A stretch of 64,000 nt of DNA from Escherichia coli (GTDB lineage: Bacteria; Pseudomonadota; Gammaproteobacteria; Enterobacterales; Enterobacteriaceae). The DNA lies in assembly GCF_003790525.1 (NCBI RefSeq), contig NZ_CP033635.1. One strand, given 5' to 3'. This document shows, piece after piece, positions 51,845-52,672 of the stretch; within the stretch, counting starts at the first letter, position 1, and every line of letters begins with the position of its first letter. Under the pieces are notes generated by a model. It was not told where the DNA came from and did no database searches. It saw only the letters and a program-made list of their open reading frames with translations. The position numbers and the translations under genes were made by a program.

Positions 51845-52672
51845 GTGGCGCGGATAAACCGTATTTCGATCACGCTCTGTGCTTTACTTTTTACCACCCT
51901 GCCTTTAACGCCTATGGCCCATGCTTCAAAGCAAGCCAGGGAGAGTTCTGCTACTACTCATATCACCAAAAAAGCAGATAAAAAGAAAAGCACGGCAACC
52001 ACCAAAAAGACCCAGAAAGCCAGCCAGAAAACAGCGAAAAAAGCCGCCAGTAAAAGTACGATCAAAGGCAAAACCGCTTCTTCCGTTAAAAAATCTTCCA
52101 TTACCGCTTCTAAAAACGCCAAAACTCGCAGCAAACACGCCGTCAATAAAACGGCCTCAGCCAACTTTACCGAAAAGTGTACCAAACGTAAGGGCTATAA
52201 ATCGCATTGTGTGAAAGTCAAAAATGCCGCGTCAGGAACCCTTGCCGACGCGCACAAAGCGAAGGTGCAAAAAGCCACGAAAGTGGCAATGAATAAACTG
52301 ATGCAGCAAATTGGTAAGCCATATCGTTGGGGCGGCAGCTCACCGCGTACCGGTTTTGATTGCAGCGGCCTGGTTTATTACGCTTATAAAGATTTGGTGA
52401 AAATTCGTATTCCGCGTACGGCGAATGAAATGTATCACCTGCGAGATGCAGCGCCAATCGAACGTAGTGAACTGAAAAACGGCGACCTGGTCTTTTTCCG
52501 TACTCAGGGACGCGGTACAGCCGATCATGTCGGCGTATATGTCGGCAACGGCAAATTTATTCAGTCACCGCGTACGGGTCAGGAAATTCAAATCACTTCT
52601 CTCAGTGAAGACTACTGGCAGCGCCACTATGTTGGCGCTCGCCGGGTAATGACCCCAAAAACACTTCGCTAA
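51845..52672 (+). CDS. mepH: NlpC/P60-family peptidoglycan DD-endopeptidase MepH (YdhO)
   Basis: Signal peptide, about 100-aa Lys/Ser/Thr/Ala-rich basic region, then an NlpC/P60 catalytic domain (Cys in FDCSGLVYYAY, His in DHVGVYVGNG); exact start uncertain (tracked ORF uses a GTG). Confidence 0.85.
   Translation: MARINRISITLCALLFTTLPLTPMAHASKQARESSATTHITKKADKKKSTATTKKTQKASQKTAKKAASKSTIKGKTASSVKKSSITASKNAKTRSKHAVNKTASANFTEKCTKRKGYKSHCVKVKNAASGTLADAHKAKVQKATKVAMNKLMQQIGKPYRWGGSSPRTGFDCSGLVYYAYKDLVKIRIPRTANEMYHLRDAAPIERSELKNGDLVFFRTQGRGTADHVGVYVGNGKFIQSPRTGQEIQITSLSEDYWQRHYVGARRVMTPKTLR

Follow-up and report, generated by a model that had tools for sequence, protein, structure and literature searches.

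MepH, a peptidoglycan endopeptidase of Escherichia coli, carries between its signal peptide and its NlpC/P60 catalytic domain a disordered, strongly cationic arm. To judge from its orthologues, selection keeps the length, charge and disorder of this arm rather than its sequence. The reading preferred here, with some reserve, is that the arm acts as an electrostatic tether that attaches the soluble enzyme to anionic peptidoglycan. The gene itself is well known; the N-terminal arm is an uncharacterised appendage, and a literature search on the N-terminal region of MepH found no study of it.

The coding sequence of mepH (ydhO) occupies positions 51845–52672 on the plus strand of the window, the whole 64,000-nucleotide stretch of E. 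coli DNA that was analysed. It has a GTG start and a TAA stop, and encodes a 275-residue allele of what is presumably UniProt P76190. The preliminary description had named the gene MepH/YdhO, and the translation of 51845–52672 matches the sequence quoted there exactly. The gene order, grxD–mepH–sodB, is that found around annotated mepH, and the window gene is 97–99.9% identical to the RefSeq mepH of E. coli genomes. Of 5426 complete E. coli genomes, 5425 carry this gene with the RefSeq annotation ‘peptidoglycan DD-endopeptidase MepH’; at least 80% of the gene is covered at 95% identity or more in 5423 genomes, and every one of these matches is labelled mepH. The RefSeq family WP_000101186 and WP_000101193 is E. 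coli MepH, the same protein as here. NCBIfam holds no equivalog model for MepH; its top match is the MepS model, below the cut-off of that model. In passages of PMC11211486 and PMC8996183 that cite other work, MepH is a DD-endopeptidase acting on 4-3 cross-links. It is redundantly essential with MepS and MepM, and is a substrate of NlpI–Prc (PMC11211486, PMC8996183, PMC11789061); loss of mepH alone causes no obvious phenotype (PMC11789061), and cells lacking both mepS and mepM require MepH. Directly 3' of the stop codon lies a terminator-like hairpin (52676–52705, plus strand) with a 13-pair stem followed by a T-rich tail, called from a consensus match alone.

The order of parts that had been proposed, with a basic low-complexity region between signal peptide and NlpC/P60 domain, is borne out by the sequence, Pfam and AlphaFold2. 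The signal peptide (residues 1–27; 51845–51925, plus strand) consists of MARINR, a hydrophobic core and a final AHA↓S, with the cleavage site placed by the A-x-A rule. It is of the SPase-I type; the lipobox pattern [LVI][ASTVI][GAS]C is absent from it, and its column identity across Enterobacteriaceae is 85–88%. At the other end of the protein, the catalytic domain (residues 157–267; 52313–52645, plus strand) matches Pfam PF00877 (NLPC_P60, MEROPS C40) over the full profile, positions 1–105, with an E-value of 8.5e-37 and 125.8 bits against a cut-off of 23. AlphaFold2 predicts a papain-like α+β fold with pLDDT >90 in the catalytic core, which is preceded by a predicted helix, α1 (residues 133–153; 52241–52303, plus strand; pLDDT 85–97). 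Neither H228 nor C173, which belongs to a DCSG motif, varies among 58 orthologues. The third catalytic position is Q240 in MepH and His in MepS and Acd24020; Gln at this position is an accepted variant in the NlpC/P60 family. Foldseek matches the structures 7cfl, 8xud (MepS) and 8i2d (LytE) with E-values of about 1e-11 and TM-target values of 0.8–0.9; by name, the matches are MepS, Acd24020 and LytE.

Residues 28–156 yield nothing above Pfam thresholds and nothing credible in NCBIfam. Profiles for LysM, SH3b, SPOR, PG_binding_1 and OmpA-like domains have no match in the non-catalytic part at E-values up to 1, and residues 9–107 give sub-threshold composition matches alone, to Presenilin and TMEM62_C (Pfam). 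In PDB sequence and fold searches, matches are confined to approximately residues 136–270. On the Pfam, NCBIfam, PDB sequence and fold searches, a hidden domain within residues 28–156 is rejected. That Pfam detects no wall-binding domain of a known type in these residues counts in favour of a tether.

In residues 28–130 (51926–52234), Lys makes up 26.2% and Ser/Thr/Ala 45.6%; 30 residues are basic and 3 acidic, for a net charge of +27, the pI is 10.8 and 8.7% of the residues are hydrophobic. This confirms the strongly basic, Ser/Thr/Ala-rich region that had been described at the N-terminus. The Lys share of the catalytic domain is 5%; against a background of 5%, the binomial probability of at least 27 Lys in 103 residues is 8e-13. 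That the region might be flexible had also been suggested, in agreement with AlphaFold2 pLDDT values below 50 across residues 30–103. Its extent, given as approximately 100 residues, was slightly overstated: about 78 residues (28–105) are disordered, and the last 25 or so form a conserved Cys hairpin. The low-complexity disordered stretch stops near residue 105 (position 52159), and residues 28–105, nearly free of acidic residues and wholly free of aromatic ones, have a net charge of about +20. At the DNA level, A accounts for 55%, 40% and 28% of codon positions 1, 2 and 3, respectively. A-richness at positions 1 and 2 and not at 3 means that it is driven by the protein; an origin in mutation bias is thereby ruled out. 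So is an origin in DNA tandem repeats, since Tandem Repeats Finder, at a minimum score of 30, finds no array in 51800–52700.

The charge does not set in at the cleavage site; about 14 residues that are close to neutral come first. In the orthologue charge profile, this low-charge start of the mature protein corresponds to residues 28–41 (SKQARESSATTHIT; 51926–51967, plus strand), and the median net charge across 103 orthologues is +1 for mature residues 1–12, +2 for residues 1–18 and +7 for residues 19–36. The polycationic, Lys/Ser/Thr/Ala-rich disordered arm follows (residues 42–105, about 65 residues; 51968–52159, plus strand), as delimited by composition, pLDDT and orthologues. Residues 106–127 (NFTEKCTKRKGYKSHCVKVK; 52160–52225, plus strand) are predicted by AlphaFold2 and the alignment to form a basic two-cysteine β-hairpin, semi-conserved and distinct from the low-complexity arm. 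Its strands, residues 108–113 and 121–126, are modelled with pLDDT 54–67, and the Cys pair (C112, C122) is kept in 34 of 58 aligned orthologues; we infer a C112–C122 disulfide.

Three open reading frames overlap this region at exactly the coordinates that had been named: an alternative-frame ORF of 97 residues, rich in Lys/Arg/Pro (51921–52214, plus strand), and two antisense ORFs of 70 (51926–52138, minus strand) and 75 residues (51958–52185, minus strand). They had been called spurious by-products of composition, and this holds: in synonymous-codon shuffles of MepH, stop-free runs at least as long as those observed occur in 49% of shuffles in the +1 frame, 46% in the −1 frame and 3% in the third frame, the last being unremarkable because five frames were tested. 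That one of these ORFs encodes a real second product is scarcely credible. Stop-free runs of 76–97 codons do overlap the arm, and the antisense frame −0 run exceeds 97% of the shuffles; against this, the two longest runs are equalled in about half of them, purifying selection acts on the frame of mepH itself, and the alternative-frame protein occurs in databases solely as frameshifted mepH alleles or in error-prone assemblies. The alternative-frame ORF is reported as a protein only as part of a frameshifted fusion with the catalytic domain (allele P0035), and the database ‘proteins’ stem either from a single base added to an A6 run, in a truncated mepH, or from an assembly with broken neighbouring genes. 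On the shuffling, real coding potential of the three ORFs is rejected.

Within E. coli, the arm varies naturally. A 12-nucleotide indel encoding KASQ (52012–52023, plus strand) is flanked by a 7-nucleotide direct repeat, CCAGAAA (52012–52018 and 52024–52030). The long form is present in at least 1649 of 5426 genomes, and both forms are found on one O157:H7 haplotype. The 275-residue window allele equals the 271-residue allele plus these four residues; ATCC 8739 has the 271-residue form, and the K-12 allele is presumably also 271 residues long. The A6 run (52088–52093, plus strand) is A7 in a natural frameshifted, truncated allele (P0035, loci L001–L003), and frameshifted mepH is present in a whole lineage. 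Rare alleles carry arm deletions of 10 to approximately 90 residues (P0010, P0014, P0016, P0019, P0034, P0048); the large-deletion alleles are singletons. It follows from the deletion alleles and the frameshifted lineage that neither the arm nor mepH is indispensable, and their occurrence in E. coli is a point against a tether. A further candidate, a compensated double frameshift that keeps the arm basic (P0013), was dropped because the assembly looks error-prone; adjacent genes are also broken.

A comparison of linker length among orthologues, as suggested in the preliminary description, finds length and charge kept and sequence not. In 103 full-length Enterobacteriaceae orthologues, the arm has 64–93 residues and a median net charge of +20, with medians of 0.26 for net charge per residue, 0.027 for the acidic fraction and 0 for the aromatic fraction; the Ser/Thr/Ala content is also retained. 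Among Enterobacteriaceae, identity to the query is 25–50% in the arm and 87–100% in the catalytic domain, and dN/dS is 0.23–0.26 in the arm versus 0.01–0.02 in the catalytic domain. The value of about 0.25 indicates that purifying selection acts on the arm; it also means that the constraint is weak, which counts against a tether.

The wider search used the catalytic domain alone as query against 1.84 billion representatives, and is thus unbiased with respect to the arm. Relatives with at least about 55% identity nearly all have basic N-terminal regions, of 76–206 residues and with net charges of +18 to +37. They include Dickeya zeae, Affinibrenneria and Rouxiella, and the basic arms of such relatives are unrelated in sequence, being either Lys-rich or Arg/Pro/His-rich. 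Relatives further removed include many lipoproteins, and their N-terminal regions are short and not basic. The contrast in basic arms between lipoprotein and SPase-I relatives has p = 0.026, a marginal value from a crude classifier; among distant relatives, a contrast between lipoproteins and basic arms is suggestive. The arm length, charge and lack of aromatic residues persist despite sequence turnover, which argues that composition rather than sequence is selected.

The mature protein left by the predicted SPase-I cut runs from a near-neutral start through a disordered polycation and the Cys hairpin to helix α1 and the NlpC/P60 core. The preliminary description had suggested a flexible tether or an electrostatic arm for binding peptidoglycan or the outer membrane, a role with which all the findings are compatible. 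As a tether, the arm would be flexible and multivalent, with low-specificity affinity for the polyanionic sacculus, and would bind the free carboxylates of D-iGlu, meso-DAP and D-Ala; anionic membrane surfaces may be a further target. Such tethering would keep the catalytic domain at high local concentration on the sacculus and permit it to slide along this substrate, and the arm would take the place of the lipid anchor of MepS, or of the membrane anchor and LysM domain of MepM. Positive charge adjoining a signal peptide impairs Sec export, which is the proposed reason for the low-charge first residues. A precedent comes from the extracytoplasmic disordered regions of Bacillus subtilis RsgI and PBP1, which work independently of sequence; the authors propose that the charged and polar residues there engage peptidoglycan through multivalent, nonspecific contacts (PMC9732909). 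Circumstantially, the activity of MepH falls when it is forced onto either membrane (PMC7516022). The conserved charge could equally serve protein–protein recognition, for example by NlpI, Prc or BipP, and this counts against a tether. A broader proposal is possible, on balance doubtful: that soluble MepH-type endopeptidases of Enterobacterales typically have in this arm a separate kind of device for targeting peptidoglycan, independent of sequence. It would replace lipid and membrane anchors, render activity sensitive to ionic strength and set the sites of cross-link cutting, and its low-charge leader would be an adaptation for bringing about 20 net positive charges through the Sec translocon.

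The main rival, itself unlikely, regards the arm as a turnover handle: either NlpI, in competition with BipP, recruits MepH to Prc by means of it, or it is an unstructured region where degradation starts and which makes MepH short-lived. Prc does degrade MepH, NlpI speeds this degradation (PMC8996183), and BipP blocks the NlpI-dependent part of it (PMC11789061). The disordered N-terminus of MepS (residues 1–37) binds NlpI and folds on binding (PMC11211486), and that of MepH lies in the same position relative to helix α1. The docking of MepS to NlpI, however, uses the conserved hydrophobic residues L24, F31, L34, V35 and V38, located directly ahead of its extended helix α1 or inside it (PMC11211486). 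In the register given by a shared R-x-G-G motif, these positions are A128, D135, K138, A139 and Q142 in MepH; the MepS-type docking features, lipobox and conserved hydrophobic docking residues, are absent, as are aromatic residues from the arm of the median orthologue. BLASTP finds no similarity between the two proteins upstream of MepH residue 149 and, with the register count, rules out homology of the arm to the NlpI-binding segment of MepS. Much of MepH degradation is also independent of NlpI (PMC8996183, PMC11789061), and sequence turnover with conserved charge is a poor fit to a motif that folds upon binding.

Disorder and size alone would suffice if the arm, as an entropic spacer or probe, fitted into the pores of the peptidoglycan mesh or was kept out of them, and so directed the enzyme to particular sites or confined it to a single face of the wall. 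Such a pore-probe model has been put forward for Lpo factors as well as for the disordered regions of RsgI and PBP1; the conserved disorder and length of the arm suit it, given the RsgI/PBP1 precedent (PMC9732909), as does the genetic link of MepH to PBP1a and PBP1b (PMC7516022). It is nevertheless distinctly unlikely here, as arm length is polymorphic within E. coli and the model leaves unexplained why lineages with arms of 76 to approximately 250 residues keep about +20 of net charge and hardly any acidic residues. The same polymorphism, with slippage indels and rare large in-frame deletions, could mean that the arm is a low-complexity insertion with little or no function, which is tolerated and drifts, and whose basic character is a historical accident preserved by weak constraints such as solubility and avoidance of aggregation. 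The arm evolves 10–20 times faster than the catalytic domain, mepH single mutants lack an obvious phenotype (PMC11789061), and a frameshifted lineage exists in nature. Yet its dN/dS is about 0.25 and not 1, its charge and its depletion in acidic and aromatic residues outlast complete sequence turnover across Enterobacterales families, the compositional bias sits at nonsynonymous codon positions and the large-deletion alleles are singletons; such drift is therefore improbable. Removal of the basic region as a propeptide after export, leaving the Cys hairpin, helix α1 and NlpC/P60 core as the active enzyme, is highly improbable. It would fit the many dibasic sites in the arm (KK, KKK, KRK), which proteases favour, and the poor behaviour of recombinant MepH once its solubility tag is removed; but the MepH papers covered here, whose texts give no band sizes, do not report processing, and a discarded peptide would need no conservation of charge and length unless it served as inhibitor or chaperone.

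The arm can be set beside known systems. One is MepS (Spr), whose NlpC/P60 core is 36% identical to that of MepH (Foldseek TM-target about 0.8), with similarity starting at MepH residue 149. Both proteins have a disordered N-terminal extension before helix α1 and are turned over through NlpI–Prc. MepS, however, is a lipoprotein with a 37-residue extension that is not basic and docks NlpI hydrophobically, whereas MepH has no lipobox and an unalignable arm of about 78 residues with a net charge of about +20 and no aromatics. The RsgI and PBP1 regions share with the MepH arm predicted disorder and a compositional bias kept without sequence conservation; they differ in coming from a Gram-positive organism, in lying at the C-terminus, in belonging to a sensor and a synthase, not to a hydrolase, and in being charged and polar where the MepH arm is one-sidedly cationic. 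Their sequence independence is experimental (PMC9732909), that of the MepH arm a matter of evolutionary comparison. LysM domains (LytE, p60), SH3b domains and coiled coils (CwlO, RipA) occupy the same N-terminal position before a C-terminal NlpC/P60 domain; these wall-binding modules are folded and recognisable by profiles, and none is detected in MepH residues 28–156. Histone H1-like proteins such as AlgP and Hc1 are likewise Lys/Ala-rich, of low complexity and highly basic, but they are cytoplasmic DNA binders built of tandem repeats, whereas MepH lacks such repeats and begins with a signal peptide.

MepS, MepM and MepH are jointly essential for enlargement of the E. coli sacculus, and the positioning and restraint of each matter. 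In MepS, the disordered N-terminus proved to be the docking site for NlpI; the appendage of MepH is much larger and chemically different. Should it turn out to be a handle for NlpI, Prc or BipP instead of a tether, it would complete the picture of how homeostatic endopeptidases are turned over. As a tether, it would account for the retention of a soluble hydrolase on its substrate, predict that its activity depends on salt, and provide a Gram-negative hydrolase as an example for the emerging idea that disordered regions of the envelope act through their composition.

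The open reading frame at 51845-52672 (+), which has a GTG start and encodes 275 aa, is mepH (ydhO), a core E. coli gene. This follows from an NlpC/P60 match (Pfam; aa 157-267, E 8.5e-37) and from a gene annotated as 'peptidoglycan DD-endopeptidase MepH' that is present, by Megablast at at least 95% identity, in 5425 of 5426 complete E. coli genomes. The protein belongs to the NlpC/P60 family by its profile match, its catalytic residues and its fold, and identity and synteny support orthology to MepH; the neighbours are lhr (46496-51112, +), the glutaredoxin gene grxD (51163-51510, −) and sodB (52800-53381, +). 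The third position of the catalytic triad is Gln240 (52562-52564, in KFIQSP). His occupies this place in MepS, Acd24020 and CD1368, and Gln in the majority of MepH orthologues, as judged from their consensus. By consensus match only, a weak sigma-70-like promoter (TTAACT, 18-nt spacer, TAGAAT; 51755-51784, +) lies about 60 nt 5' of the GTG, and a terminator-like hairpin of 13 pairs with a T-rich tail (52676-52705, +) begins 4 bases past the stop. Elsewhere in the window, the enterobacterial sRNA STnc550 has a full-length match at 54859-55249 (−; Rfam RF02081, 396 bits), and two adjoining tRNA genes (63841-63914 and 63922-63995, +) close the stretch.

This exported endopeptidase carries a disordered, polycationic N-terminal arm that is conserved by composition. 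The protein sequence quoted in the preliminary description is the exact translation of the ORF, and the basic, Ser/Thr/Ala-rich region that it proposed for aa 28-130 is real and far beyond chance: there are 27 Lys, 3 Arg and 3 acidic residues (net charge +27, pI 10.8), with 45.6% Ser/Thr/Ala and 8.7% hydrophobic residues. Lys makes up 5% of the catalytic domain, and at this background the probability of at least 27 Lys in 103 residues is 8e-13. No tandem repeat was found in the DNA of the region, and an H1-like repeat protein was considered and rejected.

The same composition accounts for the three overlapping ORFs that the preliminary description listed, all of which are present at its coordinates (51921-52214, 51926-52138 and 51958-52185). 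The coding DNA is A-rich and T-poor (41% A, 15% T) with A at codon positions 1 and 2, hence the few stops in other frames; since the A excess is found at positions 1 and 2 (55% and 40%) and not at position 3 (28%), the bias stems from the protein and not from mutation pressure. The ORFs might alternatively be real genes, but in 2000 synonymous-codon shuffles that left the protein unchanged, the observed stop-free length was reached in 49% of cases in the +1 frame, 46% in the −1 frame and 3% in the −0 frame, which justifies calling them spurious.

In an AlphaFold2 model built with a 58-sequence orthologue alignment, the core is confident (pLDDT >90), a helix is predicted at aa 133-153 (pLDDT 85-97), and pLDDT falls below 50 at aa 30-103. 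Between the two latter regions, strands 108-113 and 121-126 form a predicted β-hairpin (pLDDT 54-67). The region is thus structurally as first described, except at its C-terminal boundary, as it divides into a disordered polycation (aa 28-105; 51926-52159, +) and a basic two-cysteine hairpin (EKCTKRKGYKSHCVKVK; aa 106-127, 52160-52225) that precedes helix α1. The hairpin contains C112 and C122, a pair found in 34 of the 58 aligned orthologues, and is probably disulfide-bonded; the loop might be made by DsbA. Segment 111-120 is conserved at 72% among Enterobacteriaceae, as against 28-48% for blocks within aa 51-110. Sequence and fold searches gave PDB matches limited to aa ~136-270, no credible Pfam or NCBIfam match covers aa 28-156, and none of the folded peptidoglycan-binding modules looked for was found. 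MepH has neither a recognisable wall-binding domain nor a membrane anchor.

The 120 closest homologues, which all come from Enterobacteriaceae, show 87-100% identity to the query in the catalytic domain, while the arm reaches just 25-50% outside Escherichia. In the 103 full-length, non-frameshifted sequences of this set, the arm spans 64-93 aa (median 77) and has a net charge of +12 to +23 (median +20), with medians of 0.26 for net charge per residue, 0.027 for the acidic fraction and 0 for the aromatic fraction. To avoid circularity, a wider search of 1.84 billion representatives used aa 105-275 alone, and the N-regions of the matches were then examined. Nearly all single-domain relatives with at least ~55% domain identity, including those from Dickeya zeae, Affinibrenneria salicis and Rouxiella, have basic N-regions (76-206 aa, +18 to +37), and one at 50% identity has an N-region of 252 aa with a net charge of +43. 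These regions, Lys-rich in some relatives and Arg/Pro/His-rich in others, are mutually unlike in sequence. Below ~50% identity, N-regions are short and without net charge, and many such relatives are lipoproteins like MepS.

Nei-Gojobori estimates of dN/dS against E. albertii are 0.23 for the arm, 0.14 for hairpin plus helix and 0.01 for the catalytic domain; against a more distant homologue they are 0.26, 0.15 and 0.02. The arm sequence is thus 10-20 times less constrained than the enzyme, as a nearly functionless drifting insertion might be, yet it is not neutral. Conservation lies in its charge, its disorder and its rough length. As a separate observation, synonymous changes relative to E. 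albertii affect 10% of conserved codons in 2-130 and 35% in 131-275 (Fisher p ~2e-6). Both E. coli alleles show this pattern, which is absent against the more distant homologue; candidate causes are a mosaic or recombination history and synonymous constraint in the 5' half of mepH.

Within E. coli, the arm also varies in length. The allele in the window is 828 nt long, as against 816 nt in many strains, owing to a 12-nt indel (KASQ) at 52012-52023 with a 7-nt direct repeat, CCAGAAA, at its borders (52012-52018 and 52024-52030). Such an arrangement is classically prone to replication slippage. At least 1649 of the 5426 complete genomes carry the insertion, as judged by a 44-nt probe that spans it, and the long form also occurs in E. 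albertii. Between two O157:H7 genomes, this indel is the sole difference in the first 598 nt of mepH; it must therefore have arisen repeatedly or moved by recombination; the pattern suggests recurrent slippage or intragenic recombination. In-frame arm deletions of 10 to ~90 residues occur as rare singleton alleles (P0010, P0014, P0016, P0019, P0034 and P0048), which may be real variants or assembly artefacts. In the largest putative deletions, P0034 and P0048, the Cys hairpin is lost as well, and the junction falls between two similar segments, KKAAS and KNAAS. In one lineage (39 assembly blocks; loci L001-L003, position ~1668), A7 replaces A6 at 52088-52093, and the frameshift truncates MepH, giving a natural mepH pseudogene. 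Gene callers place a chimeric 246-aa ORF there (P0035), from the alternative-frame ATG 51921 onwards, under the name 'putative exported hydrolase' although it has no signal peptide. A second 'putative exported hydrolase' with an alternative-frame arm, P0013 from GCA_900448615.1, reflects paired −1/+1 homopolymer indels; this 'double frameshift' is probably a sequencing artefact, because lhr and grxD are fragmented in the same assembly.

The arm is quite possibly an electrostatic tether to the polyanionic sacculus. By binding the sacculus, and perhaps anionic membrane faces too, through multivalent contacts of low specificity, it would hold the catalytic domain on its substrate, in the role of the lipid anchor of MepS or the membrane anchor and LysM domain of MepM. 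The closest functional precedent is found in the sequence-independent disordered regions of Bacillus subtilis RsgI and PBP1, whose charged and polar residues have been proposed to make nonspecific contacts with peptidoglycan (PMC9732909). The function initially suggested for the region, as a tether or binding arm, is plausible. The mature protein begins with little charge (median net charge +1 in the first 12 residues and +2 in the first 18, against +7 in residues 19-36). Positive charge near the signal peptide reportedly impairs Sec export, according to Kajava and colleagues and to the polylysine work of Musser and colleagues; the low-charge leader may let the polycation be exported.

The main rival, by analogy with MepS, is that the arm serves as a handle for NlpI, Prc and BipP. 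Prc degrades MepH, in part independently of NlpI but faster in its presence (PMC8996183), and the NlpI-dependent share of this degradation is inhibited by BipP (PMC11789061). In MepS, a disordered N-terminus of 37 residues binds NlpI, with L24, F31, L34, V35 and V38 as the docking residues. Nevertheless, this role appears unlikely for the arm, as BLASTP finds no similarity to MepS N-terminal to MepH aa 149, aromatic residues are absent from the arm, and the MepH counterparts of the docking residues, counted in register from the R-x-G-G motif that both proteins have, are A128, D135, K138, A139 and Q142. A docking N-terminus of the MepS type was accordingly not found. The arm might also probe wall pores by size or disorder, or be a cleaved propeptide. 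As to experiments on the protein, MepH is less active when tethered to either membrane, and domain swaps between MepS and MepH fail to complement a mepS mutant (PMC7516022); removal of the SUMO tag makes recombinant MepH precipitate.

The mepH gene and its sequence have long been known, and the disordered region is plain from the protein record, though no mention of the basic region was found in the MepH literature searched. Sequence comparison adds that charge, length and disorder of the arm, and not its sequence, are under selection across Enterobacterales, and that the NlpI-docking motif of MepS is absent from the arm. The function of the MepH arm is a cheap and well-posed experimental question rather than a surprise.
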